A stretch of DNA of 64,000 bases, taken from the IMG/VR virus record IMGVR_UViG_3300032236_001802, positions 1-64,000 of that record; one strand, given 5' to 3'. The stretch comes from a virus. A program made the position numbers and the translations under genes. Below, one piece after another: positions 6,789 to 52,193 of this stretch; position 1 is the first letter of the stretch; each line of letters begins with the position of its first letter. Below the pieces are notes generated by a model. It did no database searches and was not told where the DNA came from. It worked only from the letters and a program-made list of their open reading frames with translations.

Positions 6789-6903
6789 GAAGACCTCAGC
6801 CCAACACGATCCTTATTAACACAAAGGCTGGAGCTTAAATGCCAATCCCCAGCAAAACTTGATCCGGTACCCTGAAATTAAGTAGTTCCACTCATGCCGG
6901 CAG

Positions 6904-6924
6904 CACGGTATACCGTGTTATACT
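6904..6924 (+). promoter_or_regulatory. palindromic operator overlapping an extended -10 promoter
   Basis: Perfect palindrome CACGGTATACCGTG followed by T-TATACT (TGnTATACT). Confidence 0.65.
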
Positions 6925-6961
6925 GGATTAACAACCAAGAAAACCGCGAGAAGACACTACC

Positions 6962-7162
6962 ATGAGCACCAAATTTCAACTAACCCCTGAGCAAATCAAG
7001 CCCGACTATAACTACCTGCGGAATATTCGCCTTTACTTTTTCTTAAATAAAATGGGCGGCGAAGGATTGGTGCGGATCTGCTATTCCTCCCAGGGGGAGC
7101 TGTGGGTCGGTGTGAACAACCTGATTCATGGGAGATACGGGACTTTCCCTAAGCACGACTGA
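6962..7162 (+). CDS. hypothetical protein (possibly continues in another frame to 7251)
   Basis: First ORF after the promoter. The -1 frame reads RLSKAMAHYEAL...RRYL* and overlaps the next ATG. Confidence 0.5.
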   Translation: MSTKFQLTPEQIKPDYNYLRNIRLYFFLNKMGGEGLVRICYSSQGELWVGVNNLIHGRYGTFPKHD

Positions 7163-7247
7163 GCAAGGCGATGGCGCATTATGAAGCCCTGGTAGCCGAA
7201 AACCCGAACCAGTCCGATGAACAAGTTCAACTCAACAGAAGGTATCT

Positions 7248-7505
7248 ATGAGTGGAAAATCCCGCTATCGCGGGTTAAAGCAATGGAAAGCCCAAGACAG
7301 TGTTCCTGGGGTTCGCCTACAAAATTTCCCGGCTTTCCGGGTTACCCCTGCGACCCTAGAAGCGTTTGAAAAGTTTTGCACCCAGAACAACAGCGATCGC
7401 CCCTTAGTTATGCGATCGCTGTTGCACTTAGCACTCTCGGATGAACAGTTTCAGAAACAGTTAATTCAAGTTCTGGAGAGGATGAAAAGTGTGGATTCAT
7501 TTTAG
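7248..7505 (+). CDS. putative ribbon-helix-helix DNA-binding protein
   Basis: AFRVTPATLEAFEKFC...RPLVMRSLL strand-helix-helix pattern. Confidence 0.5.
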   Translation: MSGKSRYRGLKQWKAQDSVPGVRLQNFPAFRVTPATLEAFEKFCTQNNSDRPLVMRSLLHLALSDEQFQKQLIQVLERMKSVDSF

Positions 7506-8037
7506 AGTGCCGTCGCAGGACGGCGTAAAACAACCATCGAAGGTTGTCTGTCAGGTGTCAGGTTTTGTTAGCGGGGAGGCTTCTACCTCCTTTGTTCTGA
7601 GAGATCTTTGCATCGGGCAAGTTCTTGGGGATGCCAATCGTGTGGCTCAGTATGGGCACATGGAGCAGTGGATCCAAGGGCATGGCCCCTTACCGTTACC
7701 CCTAACCTCCGATCATCTGCTAAAGATGGCAGAGTTCTTCCCCGTGGGGATGACGAGCCTATCGGAGATCTTTGGGTTGGAAAACCGCGTCCCCTTGTCC
7801 GTTCTTGCCGATAGGGGAGAGCTGCGGTTGACCAAAGCTCTGCTTGAAAAACTACGATTTGCCTTTGTTGGATCCTCTCGGTTTTTGCAACCAGAGATGG
7901 CCGAGAGTGCGATCGTTTTCAAGATCGGAACACAATACTTTTTGAATGCGACCTGTGGATCTACCGAGGTTGTAACACTGGCACTTGACCAAGTTGATTT
8001 GAACAGCAAGTTTCCACTAGATTTCTACTACCCCTAA
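7489..8037 (+). CDS. hypothetical protein
   Basis: GGAGAGG RBS; coupled ORF. Confidence 0.6.
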   Translation: MWIHFRVPSQDGVKQPSKVVCQVSGFVSGEASTSFVLRDLCIGQVLGDANRVAQYGHMEQWIQGHGPLPLPLTSDHLLKMAEFFPVGMTSLSEIFGLENRVPLSVLADRGELRLTKALLEKLRFAFVGSSRFLQPEMAESAIVFKIGTQYFLNATCGSTEVVTLALDQVDLNSKFPLDFYYP

Positions 8038-8039
8038 CT

Positions 8040-8261
8040 ATGACAAGTGCTATCAAAACCAGGGCTTTAGCTATAGCAATACAAACGTTACAGCAGGCAC
8101 CCAACGGGCTTACGCTGGATCAAATCGTTAACGATGTACTCTTGCAGATTGAGCATTTCCACAGCCGCAGAGAGGCGCAGGCGGTGATCCGTGATGGGCT
8201 GCGTTCTCATCCAAGGGTGTTAGTTCAGTCCGATCTTTATGAGGTAAACCAGTATGACTAA
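8040..8261 (+). CDS. small winged-helix-like protein
   Basis: GLTLDQIV...IRDGLRSHPR pattern. Confidence 0.45.
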   Translation: MTSAIKTRALAIAIQTLQQAPNGLTLDQIVNDVLLQIEHFHSRREAQAVIRDGLRSHPRVLVQSDLYEVNQYD

Positions 8262-8285
8262 CCATAGTTTCCCGGTTTACTAAGC

Positions 8286-8339
8286 TCACAAAACTTCCGT
8301 ATATTCACGGCTGAATAACACGGTATACCGCGTTATATT
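8286..8339 (+). promoter_or_regulatory. repeated promoter/operator block, copy 2
   Basis: TATTCACGGCTGAATAACACGGTATACCGCGTTATATT; near-identical to 9430-9480. Confidence 0.7.
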
Positions 8340-8382
8340 AAATGTACTGAAGCAAGCAAACTACAAACCGGGAGACAATATC

Positions 8383-9387
8383 ATGGCACATCAATTCGAT
8401 AGCGGTTTATTCGTCGGTACTGGAGCATGGCACGGTTTAGGGGTAACGGTTAAACAAGCCCCCGCAACAACCGCCGAAGCGATGAAGCTGGCGGGCATGG
8501 ATTGGACGGTAGAAGAAAGCCCAGTGATCACGATTGGACAAGATGAAACAGAGCCGTCCCTAGTGGATGGTTGGAAGGTTCTAAAGCGTTCCGACAACGG
8601 AACGGTCCTCAATGTCTGCCGGGAGTCTTGGACCCCAGTACAAAACGCCCAGGCGTTTGAATGGTTCGACCCCATCATCGCCGATGGTGACGCCGAGCTT
8701 TCAGCGGCGGTTTCATTGCAATCTGGCAAGCGGATCGCCATTACTGCCAAGATCAAAGACGCGACCGCCGAGGTTGTGCCTGGGGATCCGGTTGAATCTT
8801 ACCTTCTGCTGTTTAACAGCCATGACGGTTCCCTGTGTCTGGGGACCAAGTTTACAAACGTCCGAGTTGTTTGCGCAAACACCCTTGCGATCGCCCTGGG
8901 TGCTAAAACCCTGGCAGCCGGAAACGAAGATTTAACTTGGAACGGTAAGACTGGTCGCATCCGCCACACCAGATCGATTCACGATAATTTGCAAGCCATT
9001 CGGGACGCGATTGATGTTCAGCGGAGAACCTTCCGCTACTCAATCGAGGAATACAAGGCAATGAGCCGTGTGGATCTGTCCACCGCCGCGTTCAACGCTT
9101 ATGTTGCCAGCGTGTTCCTAGATAAGGATGATGAGAAGAAAACCGTTGGTGATCTGCGCCAATACGACCAGCTTGTTCGCAATTTCGAGCAAGGGCGTGG
9201 AGCCGACATGAAAGGAGTTCGGGGAACGCTTTGGGGTGCTTACAACGCTATTACGGAATGGACCAGCAGCCAACGGGCTGGGAATGGTGATATTGAGTCC
9301 GCCCGCGAGAACCTGAACTCTCTCTGGTTCGGAACAGCAGGGCAGATCAACGAAACCGCCCACTCTGCGGCCCTGGCACTGCTGTAA
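8383..9387 (+). CDS. DUF932 (phage/plasmid TIGR03299-like) protein
   Basis: AWHGLG, AGMDWTV, PVQNAQAF, LLFNSHDGS, RVVCANTL, IRHT, GTLWGAYNAITEW. Confidence 0.88.
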   Translation: MAHQFDSGLFVGTGAWHGLGVTVKQAPATTAEAMKLAGMDWTVEESPVITIGQDETEPSLVDGWKVLKRSDNGTVLNVCRESWTPVQNAQAFEWFDPIIADGDAELSAAVSLQSGKRIAITAKIKDATAEVVPGDPVESYLLLFNSHDGSLCLGTKFTNVRVVCANTLAIALGAKTLAAGNEDLTWNGKTGRIRHTRSIHDNLQAIRDAIDVQRRTFRYSIEEYKAMSRVDLSTAAFNAYVASVFLDKDDEKKTVGDLRQYDQLVRNFEQGRGADMKGVRGTLWGAYNAITEWTSSQRAGNGDIESARENLNSLWFGTAGQINETAHSAALALL

Positions 9388-9394
9388 CCCAACG

Positions 9395-9420
9395 CCAGCC
9401 CCGGCGCAGGTCGGGGCTGG
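9395..9420. terminator. GC-rich hairpin after DUF932
   Basis: CCAGCCCCGGC-gcag-GTCGGGGCTGG; no U-tract on the + strand. Confidence 0.5.
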
Positions 9421-9429
9421 TAAAATGGT

Positions 9430-9480
9430 TCACAACTTCAGTGTATTCACGGCTGAATGATACGGTATACCGCGTTATCT
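9430..9480 (+). promoter_or_regulatory. repeated promoter/operator block, copy 3
   Basis: TATTCACGGCTGAATGATACGGTATACCGCGTTATCT. Confidence 0.7.
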
Positions 9481-9517
9481 TGTATATATCAACCAACCGC
9501 GCAGGAGCGCTCACACC

Positions 9518-10225
9518 ATGCAACCTATCGTTACCACTGAAAACTACTTCTCCGACCTGAACTTGGCGATCGCTGAAGGTTTATTCCTCTCCAATGCAAA
9601 ACCCAAAAAGGTGGATCTCTACAATGCGATCGCCTCCCATAACAAAGCCTGTGAAATTGTTGATGCTCCCACCCAGGTAGTTACGCAACCCGAGAAACAC
9701 TCCGAGGAAATCGCAGTTGTTGAGCCTGTTGGCGCTGTGAGAACGGTTACCAAGGCTAAGAAAAACGCCTACGCCGAGCTTCGGCAACAGTGGAACAATA
9801 ACCGCGCCATGAAAGGAGTAAAGGCGGTTAAAGCGGCTTCTCAGAAAACAGAAAAGCCAGGGTTAACAGAGGCCCAAGAAGGACAGCTTAAAGTTTTAGT
9901 GGCGGGTTTTTACGCCGAGGACAAGAGCGATCGCATTAGAAATGCTTACTGGATCCATGGCGTTGTTGAGTTGGTTGGGACAACCAAAGCCGCCGAACTT
10001 TTAACCCTGAGCGTTCCCAACGTCGCACGGCAGGCTCGTAGCTACGAGCTTTTTACGCAAAGCAAAGTGATTGCAGACAACGTGAAAGCGGGGTTGTTAA
10101 GCTGGGCCAAGCTGCATGCAGAGATTGCAACCAAGACCCGCAAAACGCCGCTAGAAGAACTTGAGCAGTTGGCGCGGGACATCATTGCAGAAGCCCAAGC
10201 GAAAAAGACCACCTCAAAAGGCTAA
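9518..10225 (+). CDS. basic protein with a C-terminal ParB/Spo0J-like HTH
   Basis: AAELLTLSVPNVARQAR...VKAGLLSWAK; GGAG RBS. Confidence 0.45.
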   Translation: MQPIVTTENYFSDLNLAIAEGLFLSNAKPKKVDLYNAIASHNKACEIVDAPTQVVTQPEKHSEEIAVVEPVGAVRTVTKAKKNAYAELRQQWNNNRAMKGVKAVKAASQKTEKPGLTEAQEGQLKVLVAGFYAEDKSDRIRNAYWIHGVVELVGTTKAAELLTLSVPNVARQARSYELFTQSKVIADNVKAGLLSWAKLHAEIATKTRKTPLEELEQLARDIIAEAQAKKTTSKG

Positions 10226-10237
10226 GATTTTCCCGGT

Positions 10238-10269
10238 AAAAAGGGGATTCGGTTGAATCCCCTTTTTTT
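10238..10269. terminator. bidirectional intrinsic terminator between convergent operons
   Basis: AAAAAGGGGATTC-ggtt-GAATCCCCTTTTTTT. Confidence 0.85.
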
Positions 10270-11104
10270 ATGCCTCAATCCGATCAAGATACTGAGACGC
10301 GATCGCTTCAAAAAACTGCCCTAGGGCAATCTGCTCATCACCCGATAGGGCAGCCTCCCGTGCTCCAAAGGCATTTTTAGCCTCTGTGATGATCTGCAAC
10401 CCTAGGGGGGAAAGCTTAAACGTGACCGTTTCAAACACATCATCCTGGGCGACGCTATCGCCCCCAGAACCGCTGTTTTCATAGTTGGGGTTAAACTGGT
10501 CCCAGTTGGCTTCCGCAAGGGCTAAAAGCTCTTGCAGCTCTTGATCCTCATAAGGTAAAGCCAGGGCTGTTTCCTCTCCCATGTCAGCGTAAATATCAGC
10601 CAGCAATTGAGCTAATTCAATCTTATCGGGATCTCCATGGGTTTCATTGATAACGATCGTTAGCTTTTTAGCCTCTGCATCAGTTAGTCCGTGGATCACA
10701 TTAACAAAAACGGTCTTCCCGTCCATTTCGAGCCATCGGTGATAGCCATCAATGATCTGATATTTGCCTTCTTGGTCTGGATGGGGCCGAACTACAATCT
10801 CTTCGATCTGTCCAACCCAGCTAAGCGATTCACCAATCGCCGCCTGTTCCCTGGGTCTAGTTTTTTGAGGATTCCATTCGTTAGGTATTAGGTCCGCCGA
10901 TGACACGGCAACCGCCCGCTGTATTGCATAGCGCTGATTAAGAATGACAGCGCTATCAATGCCTGGATAGGCGTGCCAAACCTCTTTACCTTGCCCTGCA
11001 CTATCACCTTCTTCGTTGATCTGTTGTTCCCCCTGAGATTCCACAGGGGGAACAACAACTTCGTTTGCCGAAACGGTTGTTGAACCAGTTTTTCTTTTAG
11101 TCAT
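10268..11104 (-). CDS. ParB/Srx-domain protein linked to the DNA-modification operon
   Basis: LIPNEWNP, IVVRP, YQIIDGYHRW, LTIVINETHG. Confidence 0.85.
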   Translation of the reverse strand: MTKRKTGSTTVSANEVVVPPVESQGEQQINEEGDSAGQGKEVWHAYPGIDSAVILNQRYAIQRAVAVSSADLIPNEWNPQKTRPREQAAIGESLSWVGQIEEIVVRPHPDQEGKYQIIDGYHRWLEMDGKTVFVNVIHGLTDAEAKKLTIVINETHGDPDKIELAQLLADIYADMGEETALALPYEDQELQELLALAEANWDQFNPNYENSGSGGDSVAQDDVFETVTFKLSPLGLQIITEAKNAFGAREAALSGDEQIALGQFFEAIASQYLDRIEA

Positions 11105-12062
11105 CCCAAGTTATTCCCCTTGATTTCCATAGGTTAGTTGAATCAATTTGCATCTTTTGAAACTTTTTAACTTCACTTCTTAAATTGTGGATGTTTGCCG
11201 CTAAAGCCCCATCTGATTCTTTATAGCGGGGTAAGTGCTTGATGCCAGAAGCGGTTCCACCGCCAAACCTTAAGCATGAAGTCCACGACGATGAGTCGCA
11301 GGAATAAAGCGGGTAACGTTGCAAAACCCACTCGGAGGTTATTCCTAATAGGTGAACCTTTCTAAGTTTTTTCGTTTTTTTGAAATAAGCCATTACCCGC
11401 GAGAAGCACGGATCTAGCCAAGCCTCTAGCTTTTTCCGCTGGCGGGTATGAGGAACCAGCCCACCCAGGGCGATGTAATCGTATCCTTCTAGCGCCCTGT
11501 CCAGATGGGATAGATCGACGCCATGAGTAACGATCGGCATGGGATTCATACCAAGCTTTTCCAGAAGTTTTTGGTTTTTCCAGGTTGCATCCTGATCACC
11601 AATCACATCAAGGTTCATAAACAGAAGTGATTTAAGATGCGATCGCCACTTTGCATCAAACTGGATTGCCCATTGTGCATACTCTTGGGGGTGAACAATT
11701 CGATTACTTGCAAACGCCGAGAATGCTCCCGAATCGATTATCACGCGGGGCAAAACCCCTTCCCCTAAGGAGTTTTCGGCGATCTGCCGCTGGATAACCT
11801 TTTCTTTGTTTTTAACCTCTAACGGGTCAGCGTAGGTAGTTAAATGGTTTTCAATTGGCCCCATGCTGGCATACTGAATCTCTTTCTTTTGGGAAGGGTG
11901 ACCCGCTAGGTAGATTTGAACCATTTTTTTCCATGTGTTTTCATAGCTAACTAGCGGACCATCGGCATAAGCATAAGAACAAAGGTGGGATTGATACTGT
12001 TCTTGGGCAAGTAAATCGTATTGCCCGCGATCGCTACCTGCATCACAGAGGTGAATGTGCAT
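11097..12062 (-). CDS. dpdA: DpdA-like 7-deazaguanine DNA transglycosylase (TGT fold)
   Basis: IIDSGAFS, NLDVIGD, PIVTHG, IALGGLV, VHLLG, YSCDSSSW; sits directly downstream of the preQ0 genes. Confidence 0.78.
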   Translation of the reverse strand: MHIHLCDAGSDRGQYDLLAQEQYQSHLCSYAYADGPLVSYENTWKKMVQIYLAGHPSQKKEIQYASMGPIENHLTTYADPLEVKNKEKVIQRQIAENSLGEGVLPRVIIDSGAFSAFASNRIVHPQEYAQWAIQFDAKWRSHLKSLLFMNLDVIGDQDATWKNQKLLEKLGMNPMPIVTHGVDLSHLDRALEGYDYIALGGLVPHTRQRKKLEAWLDPCFSRVMAYFKKTKKLRKVHLLGITSEWVLQRYPLYSCDSSSWTSCLRFGGGTASGIKHLPRYKESDGALAANIHNLRSEVKKFQKMQIDSTNLWKSRGITWDD

Positions 12063-12762
12063 TTTGCTCTCTAAATTGCCAGATGGGATCGATCATGTTG
12101 TTCTCCTGAAACCCGCGATCGCGCAGTATGCAGGCATGGCACTTACCACACCCACCCTTAATGCCAGCGTAGCAAGTATGGGTTTCAGCGAACACCTGGT
12201 TAAAATCAAAGCTACCCATAGTCTCTACAGCCAGCTTGATACTCTCTGCCTTACTCAAATCCATCAAAGGCGTTCTGATCTCAAAGTGATCCGGGTTGCC
12301 CGCTATCGCCTCTCCCATAGCGGCTGCCGCTGCGTCAACAAAGGTCTGCCTACAATCCCAGTACCCAGCAAAATCGGCTTGACACAGCCCCGTGTAGATA
12401 GTGGTAATCCCTAAAGCCGCCGCCCGGTTTGCTGCGATCGTCAAAAAGAGTAGGTTTCTGGCGGGTACAAAGGTCGGTTCTACACCTGTTGGGAGTTCAT
12501 CAGGACCGCCATACTCCCCTAGGGGGGCGTTGCTGACCAGGGGGGAAGTACTTTGCAGTATGGGGCCAATATCGATAACCTCAAACCCATCTAGGCTTAA
12601 AGCGGTGGCCACCGCCCGCGCCGATTCCAATTCAATAGCGTGGCGCTGACCATAGTTAAAGGAAATCGCGTGAACCTCTTCAAACTCTTGCACGGCGATC
12701 GCGGCACAGGTTGTTGAATCTTGCCCACCGCTCAGAATAACCAGGCATTTACTTTTTGACAT
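12043..12762 (-). CDS. queC: 7-cyano-7-deazaguanine synthase
   Basis: LSGGQDST, FNYGQRH, TFVPARN, YWDCR, TCY..CGKCHAC. Confidence 0.95.
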   Translation of the reverse strand: MSKSKCLVILSGGQDSTTCAAIAVQEFEEVHAISFNYGQRHAIELESARAVATALSLDGFEVIDIGPILQSTSPLVSNAPLGEYGGPDELPTGVEPTFVPARNLLFLTIAANRAAALGITTIYTGLCQADFAGYWDCRQTFVDAAAAAMGEAIAGNPDHFEIRTPLMDLSKAESIKLAVETMGSFDFNQVFAETHTCYAGIKGGCGKCHACILRDRGFQENNMIDPIWQFREQNAHSPL

Positions 12763-12763
12763 T

Positions 12764-13360
12764 TCAAACCCCTATTAGGTTCATAGCTTGCATCGTAACA
12801 GACATATCATTTTGAAAGATTCCAGTTGTAGCGCGGGTCACCGTTACGGCTCCAGCTTTGAGAACACCACGGTTCGACATACAAGAATGCTGGGCACTCA
12901 GGATAACGATGACGCCCTGTGGACTCAGGGCGTCATCTAGAACCTGGCAAAATTGCGTTGTTAGGCGCTCTTGTAATTGCGGTCTTTTAGCCAAAATGTC
13001 TAGCGACCGAGGCACCTTAGATAATCCGGCAACTTTACCGTTTGGAATATAACCAACATTTGCAACACCATAAAACGGCAGTAAATGATGCTCACATAAA
13101 CTGTTAAAGGGGATTGATTTGATAATAACCAGGTCGCTGTGAGCGCAAGGGAAAGTTTTCTTTAGCGCCTCCGCTGGGTTTTGGTGCAAACCGCTTGCAG
13201 CTTCCACCCAGTACCGGAACACGCGATCGGGGGTTTCGTCCATTCCTTCGGATAATGGTCCAAATACGATCGCCATTGCTTCACGAAGCAGGGTGATCGT
13301 ATGGTTGTCCGTTATCGGTTTGGATGGGGGAATAGAAGCAAGATGAAGTGCAGGTTTCAT
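12764..13360 (-). CDS. folE: GTP cyclohydrolase I (start uncertain; overlaps the queD 3' end)
   Basis: ETPDRV, SLCEHHLLPF, GLSK, RPQLQERLT, HSCMSNRG. Confidence 0.93.
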   Translation of the reverse strand: MKPALHLASIPPSKPITDNHTITLLREAMAIVFGPLSEGMDETPDRVFRYWVEAASGLHQNPAEALKKTFPCAHSDLVIIKSIPFNSLCEHHLLPFYGVANVGYIPNGKVAGLSKVPRSLDILAKRPQLQERLTTQFCQVLDDALSPQGVIVILSAQHSCMSNRGVLKAGAVTVTRATTGIFQNDMSVTMQAMNLIGV

Positions 13361-13709
13361 CAATTCGGACGGCGATGAGTCCGGGTAGTACTGGGATGAG
13401 TTGGTCATAAATCCATTTTGCAACTAGTTCAGAAGTTGGACATTCAATTTTAAGCGTTTCATTTAGATGCCAGTGATCAAGATAGTCCCGAACCAAAGGG
13501 GCGATCGCCGCCTTGATATCAGCGTAATCTACAACCATGCCCCTTTTGGGACCATCTTCAAAAAGTTGGTTGCCCTGAACAAACACAAAACCCACCCAGG
13601 AATGACCGTGCAATCGCTGGCACTTCCCATCGTGATCAGATAGTTGATGGGAAGCTTCAAAGGTAAATTTTTTGGACAAAACCCATCCGCCAATAGGCAA
13701 GCACTGCAT
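13281..13709 (-). CDS. queD: 6-carboxy-5,6,7,8-tetrahydropterin synthase
   Basis: FEASH, CQRLHGH, LDHWHLN, PTSE, ET. Confidence 0.93.
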   Translation of the reverse strand: MQCLPIGGWVLSKKFTFEASHQLSDHDGKCQRLHGHSWVGFVFVQGNQLFEDGPKRGMVVDYADIKAAIAPLVRDYLDHWHLNETLKIECPTSELVAKWIYDQLIPVLPGLIAVRIDETCTSSCFYSPIQTDNGQPYDHPAS

Positions 13710-14383
13710 TATTTAACTCCTATCAATTTGTGGGTTTGCAGAGAAAGTCTAGCTTTGGGCCAAACCTTAAGCGCTTCTAATGTTACGTCAAAAGACCCCG
13801 ACTGATACGGAGAAACGTCAAACGTGTCAGTCCAAGCGGGCTGAAAAAATACAGGTATTCCTGAATCAAATAACCACTTCAACACACCCCCCCTAAATGT
13901 CTTTTCATCCCTTGCATAGAATAGAATGTCCTCTTCTTTTTCGATAACGAACTTGACCTCATCAGCCCTGAGCCAAAGCTGAACGGGATAACTTTTGTTC
14001 ATGTGCTCTTTAGGTGAAAGCGTGACCCACACTTGACCGGGAATCGAACTTTTAGATAAAAAACCTCCAGACGTTTCGATGTGAACAGCTTTACCCGCTT
14101 CAATTAACCCCTCGCATAGTGCGGACAAGTTTCTATGAATAAACGGTTCGCCACCAGAAATAACAACGGTTTCAGCGTTGGATAATTCGCCGATGAGTTC
14201 TGATAAAGTCATAGATTTTCGAGGGGTTGTCGCGCCGCCATCGGCGTAACCCGTATCGCACCAAGAACAGCCCACTGGGCACCCAGACAACCGAATAAAA
14301 TCAACATATCTTCCAGCGTGCAACCCTTCTCCCTGGACGGTTTGCTGAAAGGTTTCGTGAATCTGAAAAACTTGCTCCACCAT
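13709..14383 (-). CDS. queE: 7-carboxy-7-deazaguanine synthase (radical SAM)
   Basis: TVQGEG, FIRLSGCPVGCSWCDT, SGGEP, IETSG, SPK, LSLQTHK. Confidence 0.93.
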   Translation of the reverse strand: MVEQVFQIHETFQQTVQGEGLHAGRYVDFIRLSGCPVGCSWCDTGYADGGATTPRKSMTLSELIGELSNAETVVISGGEPFIHRNLSALCEGLIEAGKAVHIETSGGFLSKSSIPGQVWVTLSPKEHMNKSYPVQLWLRADEVKFVIEKEEDILFYARDEKTFRGGVLKWLFDSGIPVFFQPAWTDTFDVSPYQSGSFDVTLEALKVWPKARLSLQTHKLIGVK

Positions 14384-14389
14384 AAATCC

Positions 14390-14629
14390 TCAAAATAAGT
14401 TTAACTGCTGCCCTTCGGTGCAACCGACGCAGAAGCTGTCCACCACACCGCGATCGCAGCTGATCGCCAACCGTTCACGCCCACTGCAATGGGGGTACAC
14501 CCAATCGCGATCGCTTGCCCATGACCCGCCCACTGAGGACAGGATCCCTAAGTTATGCCCAGGGTAAAGGCTCCGGGCTTTCGCCATTGCAGTATTAATC
14601 GAGCTTACGCGATCGGGTTTGGTTTTCAT
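14390..14629 (-). CDS. hypothetical Cys-containing protein
   Basis: TAATG-coupled to the upstream gene; CVGC motif. Confidence 0.55.
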   Translation of the reverse strand: MKTKPDRVSSINTAMAKARSLYPGHNLGILSSVGGSWASDRDWVYPHCSGRERLAISCDRGVVDSFCVGCTEGQQLNLF

Positions 14630-15147
14630 TAGTTCAGCCCTGCTGACAGGGCTTTGTCGGTACTATCGCTGATCTGCACAATGGCATCCAGCACTTGATC
14701 GAAAACTTCTTTAGGCAGAGACGCTTCAAGGGCGTCAACAACCTGCCGAAGCTCTGTCTGAATCCCCTGCTCAATCTGCACTTGTACGGGTGCATCCAGC
14801 CCCAGCAATTTGCGCCGAGATTCATTGATTTTGATCGCAGTGGCGATCGCCTTCAGATTACCTTTTCTCACCTCTGAGGCAATCTTGAGCAGGTAGTAGT
14901 CCAGCCGTTCTAGTTCAAGGGCAATCAGTTCCTCTGCCGAGTTTTTTCGGGTGCTGGTTGCCTCATTCAGTGCAGCGCAAACATCCTTGTAGGCGGTGGA
15001 CTTACTGTAGGCCGGTTGACTAAATTTCACCGCGATCGCCGCCGCGATCGATTCAAACGTAGCTCCCTCGCGCCGCATGTTGAGCGCGGCCAGTCTGCGA
15101 TCCGCCACTTTGATTCGACCTGGGGACGTTTTTGATATGGATGCCAT
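14629..15147 (-). CDS. putative terminase small subunit (HTH)
   Basis: ALNMRREGATFESIA, LELERLD, AIKINESRRKLLGLDAP; resembles TerS-type HTH proteins. Confidence 0.6.
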   Translation of the reverse strand: MASISKTSPGRIKVADRRLAALNMRREGATFESIAAAIAVKFSQPAYSKSTAYKDVCAALNEATSTRKNSAEELIALELERLDYYLLKIASEVRKGNLKAIATAIKINESRRKLLGLDAPVQVQIEQGIQTELRQVVDALEASLPKEVFDQVLDAIVQISDSTDKALSAGLN

Positions 15148-15238
15148 ACTGCAAAACAGTGTCAGAGCTTTAAGTTTCCTGTAGTTCAATTTGGCATAAT
15201 TATGCTTAATTGATCCGCTTATCCGGGGATTTCCTCAA

Positions 15239-15931
15239 ATGCTGCCCGCAAACCTTTGGTCATTAACTCCAGATACGTTCATCGAATTGTTTGAAATCAG
15301 TAACTACAACTTGGACGATCCAGAGGAAACGTTTCGGTTTTGCAACTATACCGGCGTGAGCTATAGGTTGACCCCTGACTCAGATCCGCAGGAATACCCG
15401 GCGATCGGGTGCGAGTCTGAGGGATATGAGTTGGTTGGACAAGGGCCAATCCCTCAACCCAAGGTGACGATTTCAAACGTCGGTCGCGTGGTGAGTGACT
15501 GGCTCTTTTTGCTGAAGTATGATCCGCGCCATCGGCTTGAGGGTGCAAAGGTGACCCGCCGTCTGACCCAAGCCCCATTTTTGGAGGGTGGAGATCAGTA
15601 TCTAAGCCCGGTTCGGGAGTTGGCCCCAGCTATTTTTCTGATTGAGCAACTTGCTCAGGAATCCTACAAGGCGTGCCAGTTTATCCTAGCCAGCCCCTTC
15701 GATTTGGAGGGAGTAACGCTGCCAAACCGCCCCGCCCTGCGAACATGCCCGTTTGCTTATCGTGGCCCCTATTGCGGTTATACAGGCGTGGGGGCGTTTA
15801 CCAGGGCAAACCAGGTGACGACTGATCCGCGCCAAGATATTTGCGCCAAGACGATCGCCGCCTGTGAGCTGCGGTTCCCAGAGGGAAATCTGAGGTTTGG
15901 TGGGTTCCCTGGTCTGGGTGCTGTACGATGA
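15239..15931 (+). CDS. minor tail (tip) protein L, lambda gpL-like
   Basis: IELFEI, GAKVTRR, LASPFD, CPFAYRGPYCGY, DICAKTIAACELRF, FGGFPG; four Fe-S-type Cys. Confidence 0.88.
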   Translation: MLPANLWSLTPDTFIELFEISNYNLDDPEETFRFCNYTGVSYRLTPDSDPQEYPAIGCESEGYELVGQGPIPQPKVTISNVGRVVSDWLFLLKYDPRHRLEGAKVTRRLTQAPFLEGGDQYLSPVRELAPAIFLIEQLAQESYKACQFILASPFDLEGVTLPNRPALRTCPFAYRGPYCGYTGVGAFTRANQVTTDPRQDICAKTIAACELRFPEGNLRFGGFPGLGAVR

Positions 15932-15987
15932 TCGGCCTGTGACCTACATAAAAGCGATCGCCCCCTGGATTGGAGCGATCGCGGTGG

Positions 15988-17433
15988 CTATGAATCTAAA
16001 TCCTCACTTTCCCTAAATAGTCGCTCAAGCTTTTGTCGGTTAGATTCTGGAGCATCACCCGAACCAGCAGACGGCGGAGTTGAATCAGAACCACTGGAAC
16101 CCGTGGGGTTAGCCGTGGGGTTAGGGGGCTCGGGGTTGGGGTTGCTAGGCATGGAAGGGTTGTACCCGGTAGGATTACCCTCAAGATCTAAACCAGGCAG
16201 ACTGGCAGGGTACCAGCGCCCTTTTGCGTAGACCAGGGCCGGGTTTTTGACTGCACTCAGCAAAGCTGCCAGCTCACCCCTGAGCGCTTCATTTTGGCGG
16301 GTTCCCAATCTGTAGAAAATGGTATCGGCCATGATTTCCCCGATCGCCGTGCCGGGGAAAATAGCCACAGCCTTAGACCTGTGCTCCTGCGGAATGAATT
16401 CGGCGGCTGCCATAGAGACAGATACACCAATCAACCGCCGCCGAATTTTGCGGGTGAATGTACTGTACTTGAGCATCCATGGCCCCACAATATCCCGGCA
16501 CCGGCCACGGGATTCCCGGATCCGTTTCTTATTGAGCGATCGCAGTTCGGATAGGGTGTCCGGCGCTTCCTCCATGATCGTGACCCGCTCAGGGAACTCA
16601 TTGCGCCCACCGCGAAACTCTTCAGCTTCGGCCTCAATATCCAGCAAATCCTGTTCCATGGAATCTAGGATCTGTTCGGCGTTGCACAGGAGGGTTGCCC
16701 CTTGCCATTCCGAGGTTCGCCCGTAGGCGTCCCATGCTCGGATCTGAGCTTTTAGGACGTGCTTTGATAGCCATTTGACGAACTTGGACTTACCCGCGCC
16801 CATGCCCCCGATTACCACGACCACGGGATAACGATCTATGTCCTTAAGATCCTCCCACTGGAAATAGGTTGAATTGGTCCCCTGGGTTGGATAGGAGATC
16901 GCCGGGTCCGGCTGCTGCATGGGTTGCCCTGGACCGGGCTGTCCTGCTGGCTGTCCTGCTGGCGGTTGATAACCCTGCCCCTGGTACCCTTGGGCCTGCA
17001 TGATTGCCGGATAAGCGATCGGCATAGGATTCAGCATCCGCTCGATCTTCTGCATCTCCAATCGTGCGGGAAGGGTTCGCACCATGGCCTCGGCCTCCAT
17101 CTGCAACACGCGCTCACGATAGTTAAGATCGCGCTCCATATCATCCTGGGTTTGGATTTCCTCAAGAGCATTTTCATGCTCTGCTTCAATGCAGATCATT
17201 TCTGCTGTTTTGTGCATTGACCAAAGTTCGGAGGGGATTTCACCCTTTTGAGCATTGCGTGCGCCCCAACCTGCCGCCGCCAGCCCCAGCACTAGGGGAG
17301 CAATCCGCCACGGGCGAGGGGTGGAAATCGTTACACCAAGCAACACGATCGCCGCGATCGCACATCCAAAACTGGTGGCCGCTAACCGCTCGGAGAGGTA
17401 ACGGGATTCATCTGCTGATAATGATAAAGTCAT
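15988..17433 (-). CDS. membrane-anchored P-loop ATPase, FtsK/HerA-like
   Basis: Two N-terminal TMs, coiled coil, Q/P linker, Walker A GGMGAGKS, Walker B TIMEE, RK..LI segment. Confidence 0.7.
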   Translation of the reverse strand: MTLSLSADESRYLSERLAATSFGCAIAAIVLLGVTISTPRPWRIAPLVLGLAAAGWGARNAQKGEIPSELWSMHKTAEMICIEAEHENALEEIQTQDDMERDLNYRERVLQMEAEAMVRTLPARLEMQKIERMLNPMPIAYPAIMQAQGYQGQGYQPPAGQPAGQPGPGQPMQQPDPAISYPTQGTNSTYFQWEDLKDIDRYPVVVVIGGMGAGKSKFVKWLSKHVLKAQIRAWDAYGRTSEWQGATLLCNAEQILDSMEQDLLDIEAEAEEFRGGRNEFPERVTIMEEAPDTLSELRSLNKKRIRESRGRCRDIVGPWMLKYSTFTRKIRRRLIGVSVSMAAAEFIPQEHRSKAVAIFPGTAIGEIMADTIFYRLGTRQNEALRGELAALLSAVKNPALVYAKGRWYPASLPGLDLEGNPTGYNPSMPSNPNPEPPNPTANPTGSSGSDSTPPSAGSGDAPESNRQKLERLFRESEDLDS

Positions 17434-17798
17434 TACTTGATCACCTCTGGTAACACCTCGGCGTAACAAATGAGTTGATTGGCCAGCATTCTAGCCACTT
17501 GGAGATCCTTGATCGCCGTTGGCAGATCCCTGCGGCAGGTTGCAGCAAAGCAATCCTCTGCCGCTGTGCGGATCCAAAAGGAGAACTGAACATTTACCTC
17601 ATCTGGCAAAACTTTCAGCAATCCAGAGATCAAGGTGTGGTAACCCTCGATTAAATCCTCTAGGCCGCTGTTTTCGTTAATGATGACGAGCGCGTAACGC
17701 TCACAGAGCCGATTTACAGCCTCATGGGCATTTAGGCGATCGCTGGTTTTCGGTGGGTGGTATCGAAACATTTGCGCGAGCTGGGCTTCAGAATACAT
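17433..17798 (-). CDS. Acb2/Tad1-like helical hairpin protein (candidate nucleotide-signal sponge)
   Basis: FRYHPPK...HEAVN...RRDLPTAIKDLQVARMLANQLI matches the FxYHxP...R..AxxxLxxAxMxAN pattern, with an internal insertion. Confidence 0.55.
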   Translation of the reverse strand: MYSEAQLAQMFRYHPPKTSDRLNAHEAVNRLCERYALVIINENSGLEDLIEGYHTLISGLLKVLPDEVNVQFSFWIRTAAEDCFAATCRRDLPTAIKDLQVARMLANQLICYAEVLPEVIK

Positions 17799-17800
17799 AG

Positions 17801-18208
17801 TTAGATCCCTAGGATTAATTTGATTGTCAGTGCCAGGATATAGAGCAAAAAGGTGTCGGTCAGGAAATCAGCGATCGCTACCCTGAAATTGCGCCGTAAC
17901 CGCTCATGTTTGACATTTAGAAGCGGCTTGTAGCGGGCGATCTGAACAGCTTCAATCGTTTCGGCGTCATACAGGGATAGGCATGTCTGATAGTACAAAC
18001 GAACGCCCCAGAATCGGGAGATTGAGGCAAGTTTTTCATGATTCTGCCATCGTTTCTGGAGCGAATCAGCTTTGCCGATGTAGACCACGGGAGCTAAAGG
18101 GTTCCACCATTGGATTGCATAATAAACCCCCGGTTTGGGCGGTAACTTGTTTCGGTGGCGTAGGGGAACAGACGGCTTGAGTGTTAGGGGTAGCAGAAGT
18201 CGGCGCAT
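17801..18208 (-). CDS. GIY-YIG nuclease with C-terminal hydrophobic anchor
   Basis: PGVYY, YIGKA, LQKRWQNH, IE...KPLLN; ends FLLYILALTIKLILGI. Confidence 0.8.
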   Translation of the reverse strand: MRRLLLPLTLKPSVPLRHRNKLPPKPGVYYAIQWWNPLAPVVYIGKADSLQKRWQNHEKLASISRFWGVRLYYQTCLSLYDAETIEAVQIARYKPLLNVKHERLRRNFRVAIADFLTDTFLLYILALTIKLILGI

Positions 18209-18217
18209 GATTCCCCC

Positions 18218-18448
18218 CTAAACGATCCAAAGGATCACGCCAAGCGCGATCGCCCCGGCACTGAGGAAGCCATAAGGCTTTAGCTCATCGCCCAGCAGTA
18301 GGGTGAATCCCAGGGCGGCAATGATCGTGGCAGGCATAATGACGATGCCCCTTGGAAGCGCTGAAAGAGCGCCATGCAGGAGCGCAGAAAGAAAGATTCC
18401 GCCGATCATGAAACAGACGATTTTAAGCACTTCCAATAGTTGGGTCAT
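18218..18448 (-). CDS. small 3-TM membrane protein
   Basis: Almost entirely hydrophobic. Confidence 0.7.
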   Translation of the reverse strand: MTQLLEVLKIVCFMIGGIFLSALLHGALSALPRGIVIMPATIIAALGFTLLLGDELKPYGFLSAGAIALGVILWIV

Positions 18449-18552
18449 CTTGGTTTTCTCCAGAGGGCTAGATGTAGCAAGGTGGCAAGGAATGCAGCAG
18501 TGATAAAAATGAGGGCGATTTTCATCGCTGCTGCCAGTATCAGGGCTGGCAT
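18445..18552 (-). CDS. 35-aa single-TM peptide (below ORF-track cutoff)
   Basis: MPALILAAAMKIALIFITAAFLATLLHLALWRKPR*; starts 3 nt after the upstream stop and overlaps the next gene by ATGA. Confidence 0.6.
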   Translation of the reverse strand: MPALILAAAMKIALIFITAAFLATLLHLALWRKPR

Positions 18553-18555
18553 GGC

Positions 18556-19233
18556 TTAACCTGCTCGGCGCTCAAACCTGAGCACGCGCCCACTGGTCGG
18601 GGTGTAGGTTGGTTCCTTCGCCTCTGGGCTGCGGACCTGCCCTCGGGCTGCTCGGTAGCGTTCCACTAGGGATTTTTTGGCCACAGTGGCTTTTGTGTTC
18701 TCCAGTGCAGTTTTCTCGCTGAACAGGGCACTTTCGTAGCCCATAGCGTTTTCGTGTTTAGTATTCTCCAACCCAATGCCCAGATCAAGCCGTAGCCGCT
18801 CCAGCTCAAAGGCGTTAGCGTCGCGGTGATTCAGGACGCCCATGCGGGTATTGTGCCCGTATGCTTCCTGATTGAGTTTGACCTCGGTGGCCGCGACGTT
18901 GGAGCGCGATCGCATCACGTTCTTAGCCAGTTCAAGCCGTTGGCGCTGAACTTCCTCCCAGGTTTCCAGGTTCCTGGTCTGAGTAGTGACGTACTGTTTC
19001 CAGTGCTCCAGAAGTTGAGTTAACGCGGCTCCATCGCCCTGGGCGTTGTTCACATCTTCTGCGGTCAAGTTGCCCCAGTTAACAACCCAGGGCAACGAAT
19101 CTGTCCAAGCCTGCACATCGCCCCATCGGGCATTCGCAATTCCAAACCGGGAGCCGCTGTCGGTACCGCCGCCGTCAGTTTCAATCCCAACAGCTTCGGC
19201 AGTAGTTGCAAAAATGCTCTTTTTCTTAGGCAT
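18556..19233 (-). CDS. coiled-coil protein
   Basis: GGAGG RBS; long heptad-like region. Confidence 0.7.
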   Translation of the reverse strand: MPKKKSIFATTAEAVGIETDGGGTDSGSRFGIANARWGDVQAWTDSLPWVVNWGNLTAEDVNNAQGDGAALTQLLEHWKQYVTTQTRNLETWEEVQRQRLELAKNVMRSRSNVAATEVKLNQEAYGHNTRMGVLNHRDANAFELERLRLDLGIGLENTKHENAMGYESALFSEKTALENTKATVAKKSLVERYRAARGQVRSPEAKEPTYTPTSGRVLRFERRAG

Positions 19234-19236
19234 GGG

Positions 19237-19728
19237 TTAAATCCCTCCTGGGGAAAGCTGCAAGGTGGTCTTAGGGGCGATCGCCTTCTGATCTGGGCCT
19301 TGCCCTTGAAGCGGCTGTGCAGACTTTGAGGGCAAAACCTGCACATCGATCGCCCGTGGGGTGACCGCCGATTCAATTGCCCCAACTTCGTAACCAGACA
19401 TAGTTTGGGTGATGCGAACCCGTTCCCCGATGAGATCCAGGGTTAGCCCGCACTGGGTGCTATAGGTGAAATCAACCCTGAGGTTAGTAGTTGGGCGATC
19501 GCCATACTGCCAATACTGACCACAGTGGATCGCGCCCATTTCTTCAACTAGAGCCTGCTCGGCCTGAATGTCGTTGTCGATGCATTCGATTAGCTGGTTA
19601 TCTCGCCGCCGCAGCAGTAGCAAGCGGTGACGCCCCAAACCCGAACGGCTCGGAGTATTTAACAGAGTGAGGATATGGAGCGTTTCGGATCGCGTCCGTG
19701 CGACCAGGGAATGGGGTGCGTAGATCAT
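19237..19728 (-). CDS. hypothetical protein
   Basis: ATGA-coupled within the operon. Confidence 0.6.
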   Translation of the reverse strand: MIYAPHSLVARTRSETLHILTLLNTPSRSGLGRHRLLLLRRRDNQLIECIDNDIQAEQALVEEMGAIHCGQYWQYGDRPTTNLRVDFTYSTQCGLTLDLIGERVRITQTMSGYEVGAIESAVTPRAIDVQVLPSKSAQPLQGQGPDQKAIAPKTTLQLSPGGI

Positions 19729-20141
19729 TGTAAAGCTCCTATTGTGACGTTCTCACCCGCTTTTCCATGGCTGGGTGAGAAGCATTTTTGTTGATTCATG
19801 TTTGCAATTGCCACTCCGATGGCAAGGCCGAAAGTTGTACCGAAGACGAAAGCACCAATGATCATCACCCTTGACCGCAGCGAAAACACTACCGACATCA
19901 TCGCTAACCGCATCTGCCACTCCTGTCGAATCAGATCGTACTGAGTGGCTGGATGTTCAGACGCGATCGCCTGTTGCTCGATTAACCTGGACAGCTCTGC
20001 ATCAGTCATTTCATTGACGCCGCGCAGAAGCCGATACTCTTGGACCGCTTGCCCCTGTACCAAGCCGTTGACCGATTTACACAGAGCGTCTGTTCGCTGC
20101 TGCGTAAATCGAGCTAAATACTTGGCATGGTAGGAAGTCAT
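19725..20141 (-). CDS. single-TM protein
   Basis: Hydrophobic segment VMIIGAFVFGTTFGLAIGVAIA. Confidence 0.6.
   Translation of the reverse strand: MTSYHAKYLARFTQQRTDALCKSVNGLVQGQAVQEYRLLRGVNEMTDAELSRLIEQQAIASEHPATQYDLIRQEWQMRLAMMSVVFSLRSRVMIIGAFVFGTTFGLAIGVAIANMNQQKCFSPSHGKAGENVTIGALQ
19750..19781. repeat. TTCTCACCC-N14-GGGTGAGAA site, copy 1 (intragenic)
   Basis: Same arms and spacer length as the sites at 42495 and 52162. Confidence 0.7.
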
Positions 20142-20143
20142 TG

Positions 20144-20518
20144 TTAGGCGAGTCCGTATTTTTGTAAGAAATCGGTAACCTTAGCGTCCGAATCCTTGAT
20201 AAGCCCGTCTACAGCCGTGCTTAGTTCGGTTTGGCGGGCCACTGTTGCGGCGTTGATACCGCCAGCCCTGCGCTCAAGCTTTGCTCGAACTTCAGCGTCG
20301 ATCGCTTCAGGGATGGCCCCATAGATGGAAGCGATCGCGCCGCTGGCTTGGTTAACAATCTGACTGGCTGTCTGTGCAGCTTCCTGAACTGCTGCGACTC
20401 CAGTTCCCTGGATCACAACGGCAAGAGAGTCCTTTTTACTGGTCTTTTTCCGCTTGACCCCGGTTGGGGCTGGCTGCGGAATACTGGATTCTGTTTTCGC
20501 TAATTCTGAACTTGACAT
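20144..20518 (-). CDS. helical hypothetical protein
   Basis: Coupled ORF within the operon. Confidence 0.6.
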   Translation of the reverse strand: MSSSELAKTESSIPQPAPTGVKRKKTSKKDSLAVVIQGTGVAAVQEAAQTASQIVNQASGAIASIYGAIPEAIDAEVRAKLERRAGGINAATVARQTELSTAVDGLIKDSDAKVTDFLQKYGLA

Positions 20519-20820
20519 AGCTCGTAAACCCTCCTTAGGGCGAGTGGGTAGAGCCGGTTATAGGTGTCTCCGGCAAAGTTGCGGACTCCGGCATAGTGCA
20601 GCATGGCGCAAGTGGTCAGCCCAGCGGCAATCTGTAAATTGACCTCATCTGAGGAAGTTCCCCGGATTGAGAACCGAGAGCACCAACGGGAAAAGGTTGG
20701 GGCCGGGATGGGCTTACCCGCGATGTGTTCACACCATTCCCGCAGGTAACCGAGGGACAATCGAATTTCCTCCGGCGTAGTGGTGTGAGTTTCAGTTTCG
20801 CGTGTGAAAACTTGGGGCAT
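20500..20820 (-). CDS. putative HTH protein, first gene of the membrane/ATPase operon
   Basis: LSLGYLREWC...PAPTFSRWC; AAGGA RBS. Confidence 0.55.
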   Translation of the reverse strand: MPQVFTRETETHTTTPEEIRLSLGYLREWCEHIAGKPIPAPTFSRWCSRFSIRGTSSDEVNLQIAAGLTTCAMLHYAGVRNFAGDTYNRLYPLALRRVYELCQVQN

Positions 20821-20982
20821 GATCCTTGATTTCTGGCGGTTTTAGAGTTTCATGTGTGAAAAAATCCGAAACTTAAATAAGAGATTAACACAGGTTTTGG
20901 AGTTTTCACCGTTTTTCTGTCGGTGTTTTGTCGGGTTGATAGCGGCTTGCTGTACGATAGGAACACCTGAAAGGTGTGTGAT

Positions 20983-21297
20983 ATGGCAAAACCCGAATCT
21001 ATCCGAATTGATATCCGAGTAACCCCGAAACAGCTTGAGCGGGCAGATGACCTGGCTAACGCTTTGACAAGCGATCGCCCGGACGTAATGAGAACGGCCT
21101 TGGATCTGGGTTTTGATCAGTTGGAGCTTCGGCAGTTGCAGCACTGGCAGTATTTGAATGCCAAGCTGGTCAATGCGAAGCTGGGAGGGCGGCGGCAGAA
21201 CATAGCCGATGCCCTGGATCTGCTTACTCAGGATGGCGAGGATCTTGAGGGCCGGATTAAAAAAGTAATTGCCCTACTTGAAGGGGCGATCGGTTGA
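20983..21297 (+). CDS. putative RHH regulator, divergent from the ATPase operon
   Basis: IRIDIRVTPKQLERADDLA...RPDVMRTAL. Confidence 0.6.
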   Translation: MAKPESIRIDIRVTPKQLERADDLANALTSDRPDVMRTALDLGFDQLELRQLQHWQYLNAKLVNAKLGGRRQNIADALDLLTQDGEDLEGRIKKVIALLEGAIG

Positions 21298-52161: not shown

Positions 52162-52193
52162 TTCTCACCCATCTATAAAGCAATGGGTGAGAA
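52162..52193. repeat. TTCTCACCC-N14-GGGTGAGAA site, copy 3
   Basis: TTCTCACCC-atctataaagcaat-GGGTGAGAA, intergenic. Confidence 0.75.

Follow-up and report, generated by a model that had tools for sequence, protein, structure and literature searches.

What would a tailed phage do with a compact operon of small membrane proteins that ends in the gene of an FtsK-like motor? This question is raised by positions 15,988 to 21,297 of a 64,000-nucleotide stretch of viral DNA (IMG/VR record IMGVR_UViG_3300032236_001802), called here the window, which is the first 64 kb of a phage contig of 75,752 bp (75.7 kb; G000). The ten genes of the operon are numbered g1 to g10 from its upstream end (Table). A first-pass annotation, made from the letters of the window, had proposed that they encode a machine for passing the phage genome from cell to cell, by analogy with TraB and the Spd proteins of Streptomyces. 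We found that the ATPase g10 has the predicted fold of the FtsK-type DNA pumps, that a distantly related phage maintains the order of eight out of ten genes, and that relatives of g10 are present on plasmid-like contigs and integrating elements of cyanobacteria, exclusively in hetR-positive genomes. Our preferred reading, which we hold tentatively, is that the operon encodes a membrane apparatus that may move DNA and is related to the transfer of such elements.

The evidence begins with g10 itself. The AlphaFold2 (AF2) model of the protein has a mean predicted local distance difference test score (pLDDT) of 82.8, rising above 90 over the ATPase domain. At the N-terminus, hydropathy and the model agree on two transmembrane (TM) helices that form a membrane hairpin, the second of which runs on as a stalk of about 70 residues. 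After a disordered, P/Q-rich linker (residues 140-186 in the model) comes a compact alpha/beta P-loop domain (residues 188-425); beyond residue 425 the chain is a disordered, Pro-rich tail with a conserved acidic C-terminal helix of 14 residues (465-478). FtsK, TraB and TcpA are laid out in this way too, with a membrane anchor, a stalk, a P/Q linker and then the motor. The Walker A motif reads GGMGAGKS and the Walker B motif IMEEA, and residues G214, K215 and E289 are invariant across an alignment of 44 homologs. An exhaustive HMMER search gathered a family of 74 cluster representatives of 127-668 aa, each of which has a single ATPase domain; the three-tandem arrangement of EssC/EccC was seen in none of them.

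In an all-against-representatives structural search with the AF2 model, the best match of g10 was TcpA of pCW3 (PDB 6o1x; Z 15.2 over 201 residues, root-mean-square deviation 3.4, 12% identity), followed by EssC/EccC (Z 12.2-13.1), the FtsK motor (Z 12.1) and DndH (Z 11.8). VirB4 (Z 10.3), HerA (Z 10.2) and STIV B204 (Z 10.2) scored lower, then Cag-beta (Z 9.8), TrwB (Z 9.6) and Zot (Z 8.1). RecA/Rad51 reached Z 9.5 or less, and the defence-type matches (DndH, TdpAB, Sir2/HerA) lay between Z 8.5 and 11.8. Foldseek agreed, with TcpA, FtsK and EccC on top. As judged from this predicted fold, g10 belongs, as a membrane-anchored protein, to the FtsK branch of the FtsK/HerA superfamily, in line with the earlier label of FtsK/HerA-like P-loop ATPase. 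Sequence profiles add little to this placement: the NCBIfam models gave only scattered weak matches to the 44 family members (TrbE, VirB4, TraC and EccC models), and the matches of the family profile to PDB sequences were restricted to the P-loop. An assembly prediction for four copies of the ATPase domain scored 0.01 against a mark of 0.42, controls were not run, and we give it no weight either way.

The ten genes are co-directional open reading frames (ORFs) on the minus strand, from 20820 down to 15988, with gaps between successive genes of -19, 2, -4, 3, 3, -4, 9, 2 and -1 nt, and a terminator-like hairpin closes the operon; the tight coupling reported earlier is thus real. A simple hydropathy scan found membrane segments in five of the ten products (g3, g6, g7, g8 and g10), again in agreement with the first-pass annotation, including the three segments of g7 and, for g10, the hairpin of the AF2 model. 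The membrane-tailed GIY-YIG nuclease proposed for g8 also stood. A profile built from six sequences matches the UvrC N-domain (1yd6) over the whole domain at E 1e-7, and T4 endonuclease II and I-TevI as well; the catalytic positions are kept, with G27, Y29, Y43, G45, R53 and E86 invariant and an N position conserved too. The single sequence of g8 remains just below the cut-off in Pfam; on the profile evidence we regard the GIY-YIG domain as genuine.

The unit character of the operon can be judged in two relatives. The closer one, a 15.5-kb contig binned in an uncultured cyanobacterial metagenome-assembled genome (MAG; L001), carries all ten genes and the flanking tail-protein L (gpL) gene at 69-95% identity, and leaves the hydrophobic pattern of g6 unchanged; it is too close to be informative on this point. 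The distant relative, an IMG/VR virus, is represented by the contigs G406 (50 kb) and G407 (78.8 kb, 95% complete according to CheckV). G407 has about 20 of 114 ORFs in common with G000, at 25-40% identity, and within this limited set the operon is the longest syntenic block and holds the best conserved proteins of the pair. Eight genes are present in unchanged order and orientation: g1 (54% identity), g2 (31%), g3 (41%), g4 (28%), g5 (47%), g7 (36%), g8 (46%) and g10 (38%). The g7 counterpart shows the same three TM peaks. Because g6 and g9 are missing from G407, where the counterparts of g5 and g7 abut and g8 overlaps the ATPase gene directly, the conserved unit appears to be of eight genes, not of ten as first described, and g6 and the Acb2-like g9 are best regarded, from this comparison, as lineage-specific additions outside the core. 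Between g4 and g5, G407 has some 600 extra bases, which include a 128-aa ORF with a TM segment. Two other observations were made in this pair of phages: a second, unlinked GIY-YIG paralog of g8 (37% identity) at 19323-19586 of G407, and, among the few common genes, a small membrane GGDEF-like gene (window 2729-3187; G407 17366-17698; 38% identity).

Outside phages only the ATPase has relatives, the GIY-YIG domain of g8 apart, and these stand in two settings, plasmid-like contigs and chromosomal elements. In the plasmid-like contigs of Alkalinema and of FACHB-63, the ATPase gene lies a few kb from a divergent gene for a protein of about 1,000-1,100 aa that contains DUF3854, and the FACHB-63 contigs additionally carry a ParM-like gene. 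Plasmid pPg_01 (Pseudanabaena galeata) carries a distant member, annotated in the record as a type IV secretion system (T4SS) DNA-transfer family protein, which adjoins a DUF3854 gene. In cyanobacterial plasmids, DUF3854 proteins are the replication proteins known as CyRepA (PMC10079941). Partition genes (ParM, ParA or ParB) are found beside family members on plasmid-like contigs.

The second setting comprises 20 further chromosomal or contig loci with a recurrent layout: a tyrosine integrase (Int) of about 400 aa that includes an Arm DNA-binding domain, one small gene, the ATPase, a 2-TM protein of about 140 aa whose gene overlaps that of the ATPase, half a dozen small genes, and a divergently oriented DUF3854/D5/VapE primase-helicase (Rep). 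Integrase, ATPase and Rep occur together in L055, L056, L058 and L069, and an integrase is also present in L064. Clustering of the neighbours showed the integrase to be the commonest family (12 of 27 loci), with the DUF3854 Rep in 8/27; a Pfam tally of 114 further neighbours was headed by Phage_integrase, ParA-type ATPases and serine recombinases. T4SS families, VirB4 and relaxase included, were absent from the 25 neighbour families listed for the 27 homolog loci.

A tRNA gene abuts the integrase in three loci (L006, L007 and L057). In L006, from Leptolyngbya sp. AN10, a 15.6-kb element (3586-19275) lies between 44-bp direct repeats of the 3' end of tRNA-Met and contains the integrase, the primase-helicase, the 2-TM protein, the ATPase and two large proteins of 786 and 435 aa. 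For the latter two no PHROG or Pfam family was recognised, a weak sub-threshold match of the 435-aa protein to Laminin_G_3 being the sole hit. A simple exact-match search for attachment (att) repeats at five further integrase-bearing loci gave none. These homolog loci, not the phage, thus have a gene set like that of the integrative and conjugative elements of actinomycetes (AICEs): integrase, Rep, an FtsK-type ATPase and, in L006, att repeats at a tRNA gene. Decay and truncation of the ATPase gene were also observed: in Alkalinema sp. RU_4_3 (L007 65-1075) it is spread over three frames beside an integrase and tRNA-Phe, and Alkalinema CACIAM 70d (G001 contigs C51 and C12) has two truncated copies of 220 aa.

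Several features connect the phage with these elements. A quick maximum-likelihood tree groups the phage ATPases in a clade (support 96-99) that includes an Alkalinema plasmid-like copy, and because that copy sits within the phage clade, the gene has apparently moved between phage and plasmid backgrounds. A small gene for a 2-4-TM protein is immediately upstream of the ATPase gene in most plasmid and integrating-element loci, so that conserved membrane-gene neighbours, which the earlier proposal had called for, exist both in G407 and in the elements. In L060, L061 and L071, GIY-YIG genes related to g8 are no more than about 3 kb from the ATPase. The expectation that the phage gene order would recur in plasmids and integrating elements was borne out for the ATPase with analogous small TM genes, and not for the phage partners g1-g9, the GIY-YIG domain excepted. 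As a separate phage-element link, a segment of about 60 aa of a 287-aa phage protein (41625-42488) is about 40% identical to small genes in L057, L058 and L064.

The hosts point to filamentous cyanobacteria. The HIP1 octamer GCGATCGC occurs 135 times in G000 against 1.3 expected, and because of this over-representation the host of G000 can be assigned, on sequence grounds, to the cyanobacteria; in G407 there are 74 copies against 1.1 expected. We searched 401 evenly drawn species of the phylum with profiles for the ATPase family and for HetR (Peptidase_S48). The ATPase family was found in 19/401 species, with genomes of 4.1-8.5 Mb, and HetR in 101/401. All 19 carriers are HetR-positive (Fisher p 1e-12, or about 1.5e-6 when restricted to genomes above 4 Mb, whose number was roughly estimated), an association confounded by phylogenetic clustering and genome size. 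Five further carriers, including the MAG with L001, are HetR-positive as well, which makes 24/24. Most unicellular cyanobacteria are without hetR, and some early-branching filamentous ones (Pseudanabaena) have lost it (PMC12669612). The family, found only in hetR-positive genomes, thus appears biased to filament-forming cyanobacteria, and the enrichment in filamentous hosts that the first-pass annotation had anticipated was observed.

Since the motor is kin to what is the sole candidate transfer gene of minimal elements, and the hosts form filaments, movement of DNA from cell to cell would be its most economical function. According to this reading, the products of the operon would form one membrane-embedded apparatus around g10, acting as a ring ATPase of the TcpA/FtsK type. 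The motor, anchored by its two-helix hairpin and kept off the membrane by the long stalk, would most likely thread DNA, in double-stranded form, at the cytoplasmic membrane or through it. The passage could be formed or gated by g3 and g7, plus g6 in this phage; the membrane-tethered nuclease g8 might cut or nick the DNA at the entrance; and the soluble g1, g2, g4 and g5 might choose or supply the substrate, g1 being the candidate for DNA binding. For the acidic helix at the C-terminus of g10, a docking peptide is the likely role. Beyond the fold and the gene context we infer the assembly of a ring, DNA as the substrate, the transport direction, the partners' roles and spread between cells.

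Because the other homes of the motor carry a gene set of the TraB self-transmissible type, the likeliest job of the phage copy would be to move phage DNA, free of the virion, into neighbouring cells of the host filament. We consider such virion-independent spread of the phage genome itself somewhat unlikely. The same caution applies to the stronger form of the proposal, which we also place on the unlikely side, namely that in a lineage of tailed cyanophages a TraB-like, T4SS-independent apparatus for double-stranded DNA passes the phage genome along the filament with no virions made, and that the same motor family drives a hitherto undescribed, actinomycete-style conjugation of small plasmids and tRNA-integrating elements, specific to filamentous cyanobacteria.

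A number of observations weigh against this reading of the operon. With a terminase and a tail of its own, the phage has no need of a second spreading route. The 75.7-kb genome yielded neither an integrase or recombinase nor a clear system of plasmid maintenance, which bears on the persistence of any transferred DNA; integrase and recombinase were not found in G407 either. In the model of g10 there is no folded C-terminal winged helix-turn-helix (wHTH) domain, the DNA reader of TraB and FtsK, after residue 425, and no cluster of a repeated 8-mer resembling clt was found in or beside the operon. Pfam FtsK_SpoIIIE (PF01580) does not match g10 and matches 3 of the 44 family members weakly (best E 3.3e-4); curated models recognise g10 only as a generic P-loop protein, so that its placement is by fold alone. 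EssC and EccC, the second-best fold match, move proteins and not DNA. Tight packing and synteny are frequent in phages even among unrelated genes. When hidden Markov models (HMMs) of g1-g9 were run against the 1,119 ORFs from the loci in plasmids and integrating elements, no match fell below E 0.4; apart from the GIY-YIG domain, the machine of g1-g9 is, by these searches, conserved only within one phage lineage. The confounding of the hetR association belongs here too. The TraB and Spd analogy accordingly stands in part: the DNA-pump fold, the mobile-element context and the filamentous bias agree with it, and the wHTH domain, clt repeats and FtsK_SpoIIIE membership do not.

Some of these observations admit other explanations. 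If the motor captured incoming DNA and the tethered GIY-YIG nuclease cut it, the operon would provide superinfection or entry exclusion, or a membrane-sited defence, and would shield the element from competitors. Several defence systems combine a nuclease and an ATPase of the FtsK/HerA type in this way; DndH, TdpAB and Sir2/HerA are among the fold matches of g10; the module resides in mobile elements, which frequently carry exclusion genes; and g9, inserted in the operon, is a possible anti-defence gene. We nevertheless regard this explanation as unlikely: no PADLOC model rose above noise for any of the ten proteins, the defence-type folds score below TcpA, EssC and FtsK, and the ATPase stays with Int and Rep across differing backbones, as a backbone gene does and variable cargo does not. 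Defence would also leave the restriction to hetR-positive genomes unexplained except through phylogeny. Quite unlikely, in our opinion, is a chance packing of functionally unrelated early or accessory phage genes, in which the ATPase would work by itself or together with one neighbour or two. Small genes that overlap are normal in phages, g6 and g9 are not constant members of the operon, and seven of the nine partners of the ATPase have no recognisable family; however, eight genes are maintained in order at 28-54% identity in two phages that have so few ORFs in common, and half of the ten genes encode membrane proteins.

The fold and layout of FtsK, and the partition genes that adjoin family members on plasmid-like contigs, would also suit a role within one cell, in which the motor clears or segregates DNA at the septum and prevents the trapping or loss of genome copies at division. 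To this we assign a slightly lower probability again, since elements that already have partition systems have no obvious need of it, g10 is without the gamma or wHTH domain that would orient pumping, and the nuclease and the many small membrane proteins would be left unexplained. Still less probable is a minimal protein-export system of the type VII secretion system (T7SS), with EssC/EccC as model and the small helical proteins of the operon, such as g2 and g9, as cargo. EssC likewise has two TM helices and a stalk and ranks second in fold; yet all 74 representatives have one ATPase domain, against three plus a forkhead-associated (FHA) domain in EssC/EccC, no WXG100-like or other T7SS family was matched, and the small elements with Int and Rep have no obvious need for secretion. 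The embedded satellite or inovirus-like element that the first-pass annotation offered as an alternative, or a PRD1/PM2-like membrane virus packaging its DNA with an FtsK/HerA-type ATPase, is very improbable and we rejected it. Packaging ATPases of membrane viruses and Zot do belong to the same superfamily, but TcpA and FtsK score far higher than STIV B204 and Zot, and the TM helices of g10 are N-terminal, the opposite of Zot/pI. The operon contains neither an integrase nor a Rep nor a gene of capsid size and lacks flanking repeats of its own, and its divergence from G407 equals that of other common phage genes, which argues for vertical inheritance in the phage lineage.

Table. Features of the operon and its surroundings (positions in the window).
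Feature	Position	Strand	Length (aa)	Description
Large terminase gene	4098-6788			Split by a LAGLIDADG/homing-endonuclease (intein-like) insert
Terminator-like hairpin	15954..15982	-		11-bp stem followed by a T-run; 6 nt past the g10 stop; closes the operon
g10	15988..17433	-	481	Membrane-anchored FtsK/TcpA-like P-loop ATPase (fold model); last operon gene
g9	17433..17798	-	121	Helical; accessory insertion
g8	17801..18208	-	135	GIY-YIG nuclease domain and C-terminal TM anchor; core
g7	18218..18448	-	76	Three TM segments (hydropathy); core
g6	18445..18552	-	35	Single-TM peptide, hydropathy 2.47; accessory
g5	18556..19233	-	225	Soluble; conserved C-terminal tail KEP..PT.GRV..F.R.AG; core
g4	19237..19728	-	163	Soluble; no recognisable fold; core
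g3	19725..20141	-	138	Soluble N-terminal part, one C-terminal TM (hydropathy peak at residues 94-112); core
Inverted repeat TTCTCACCC-N14-GGGTGAGAA	19750..19781			Perfect, 9 bp; within the 3' end of g3, 22 nt upstream of where g4 starts
g2	20144..20518	-	124	Ala-rich, soluble, basic N-terminus; core
g1	20500..20820	-	106	First operon gene; best conserved core protein
Divergent gene	20974..21297	+	107	Possible ribbon-helix-helix (RHH) N-terminus (RHH_1, E 0.068)

The remaining products of the operon are less easily placed (Table). The AF2 model of g1 is confident (pLDDT 82.7), with elements in the order beta-alpha-alpha-beta-alpha-alpha. Its fold matches are weak and within noise (Z 6 or less), and the MerR-type DNA-binding domains reach only about Z 4; of the helix-turn-helix label given to g1 in the first-pass annotation, there remains a candidate DNA-binding protein with a well-predicted fold. 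For the Acb2/Tad1-like label of g9 there is a sub-threshold match, to the Acb2/Tad1 hairpin domain (Pfam PF24729), of 19.9 bits for a cut-off of 27, and no PDB sequence was matched. The divergent gene upstream had been called an RHH regulator; the RHH_1 match is weak, a tblastn search found no counterpart beside the G407 operon, and the gene is a possible member of the module.

For g2, g3, g4, g5, g6 and g7 no family was recognised in Pfam, PHROGs or PADLOC; over all ten proteins PHROGs gave nothing useful and PADLOC only noise-level matches. The ESM Atlas returned no informative match to g4 and g5, a large protein search with g5 recovered one close homolog and nothing more, and alignments of g1 and g5 recovered from IMG/VR only the two contigs already known. 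Neither the operon region nor the ATPase has a close DNA or protein match in the GenBank phage collection. In the PLSDB plasmids there was no match with g10 itself and one distant match with a homolog, and no relative was retrieved from the JGI metagenome contigs.

Some sequence features in and around the operon deserve mention. The stem of the terminator consists of two HIP1 octamers. The inverted repeat in g3 overlaps a promoter-like match and could be an operator or an RNA hairpin. The window has two copies of it, where none is expected by chance, the second at 52162-52193 with an unrelated spacer; the position of the copy upstream of g4 is kept in L001 (1023-1054) and not in G407. The minor tail protein L, of lambda type, has an isolated gene at 15239-15931 (+) that converges with the ATPase gene. 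This gpL gene is 27 kb from the tail-tip J gene (43409-46609, -), on the opposite strand, and its adjacency to the ATPase is preserved in L001.

Besides the tail proteins L and J, both lambda-type, G000 encodes a giant protein of 3,254 aa, DnaB, a number of DNA methylases and, in a preQ0 cluster, QueC, FolE, QueD and QueE. The 8-mer AATTTACC, part of a longer CTTGGTAAATT unit, has eight copies in about 100 bp (window 36950-37050), inside or beside a 391-aa gene immediately downstream of DnaB. This cluster is iteron-like and is a possible candidate for a replication origin. A search for a terminal repeat of the contig gave only an imperfect repeat of a coding segment. The AAA_10/VirB4 and PF03432 relaxase models, the only ones tried, had no match in G000 or G407, in accordance with the earlier remark that neither VirB-type T4SS genes nor a relaxase are recognisable; that remark now extends to the whole 75.7-kb genome.

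In the literature searched we found no report of T4SS-independent, single-pump DNA transfer in cyanobacteria. The g10 family, the cyanobacterial AICE-like elements, their filamentous bias and the eight-gene phage operon likewise appear undescribed in that literature; the fold and the general idea are already known from TraB, TcpA and TdtA. Neither Pfam nor NCBIfam has a model for the family of 74 representatives; in filamentous cyanobacteria, it is a marker of small plasmids and integrating elements. If the pump does move DNA between cells, it would represent a route of gene flow in a major multicellular bacterial group, a virus with a second, virion-free mode of spreading, and possibly a tool for DNA delivery to filamentous cyanobacteria, which are hard to transform. 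As the elements are small, and one with mapped ends is in a cultured Leptolyngbya strain, the idea is directly testable.

The comparison with known systems helps to define what kind of pump g10 might be. Among the coupling proteins of the VirD4/TraG/TrwB type, TrwB (Z 9.6) and Cag-beta (Z 9.8) both rank under TcpA and FtsK, and the distant homolog on pPg_01 bears the T4SS DNA-transfer annotation. With FtsK/SpoIIIE (Z 12.1) g10 shares TM helices at the N-terminus, a long linker rich in P/Q and a RecA-like motor; it differs from them in having two TM helices instead of four, a shorter motor and neither alpha nor gamma domain. EssC/EccC combine two TM helices, a stalk and an FtsK-like domain as g10 does, but they have three ATPase domains to its one and an FHA domain that it lacks, and none of the T7SS partner families accompanies g10. 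TcpA of the Clostridium perfringens plasmid pCW3 has, like g10, a single FtsK-like domain behind N-terminal TM helices and is encoded on a mobile element. It works, however, with the T4SS-like Tcp apparatus, whereas VirB4 and relaxase were not found in the phage or in the listed neighbours of its homologs.

Two systems that dispense with a T4SS are of particular relevance. In Thermus, TdtA, encoded on ICEth1, is a hexameric ATPase of the FtsK/HerA type that, together with a nuclease, pushes DNA out of the donor, and ICEth1 is a small tRNA-integrated element with 47-bp repeats (PMC5365140). This transjugation of Thermus thermophilus resembles the phage operon in that an FtsK/HerA-family ATPase is co-encoded with a nuclease; the differences are that TdtA is HerA-like and without TM helices, that its nuclease is of the NurA and not the GIY-YIG type, and that the match of HerA to g10 is weaker (Z about 10). 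The AICEs are defined by an integrase, a Rep and an FtsK-domain Tra protein, and the latter alone moves double-stranded DNA (PMC3429521). Compared with TraB, g10 falls outside FtsK_SpoIIIE, has no C-terminal wHTH domain and is not accompanied by clt-like repeats; no homology to Spd proteins was shown, the g10 module sits in a tailed phage, and the Rep of the cyanobacterial elements is a DUF3854 primase-helicase and not a rolling-circle Rep. What g10 has in common with TraB/TraSA and Spd is a membrane-anchored FtsK-like motor encoded together with small hydrophobic proteins and, as in the AICEs, a family that is found in minimal elements of Int, Rep and ATPase integrated in tRNA genes, in hosts that are multicellular filamentous bacteria.

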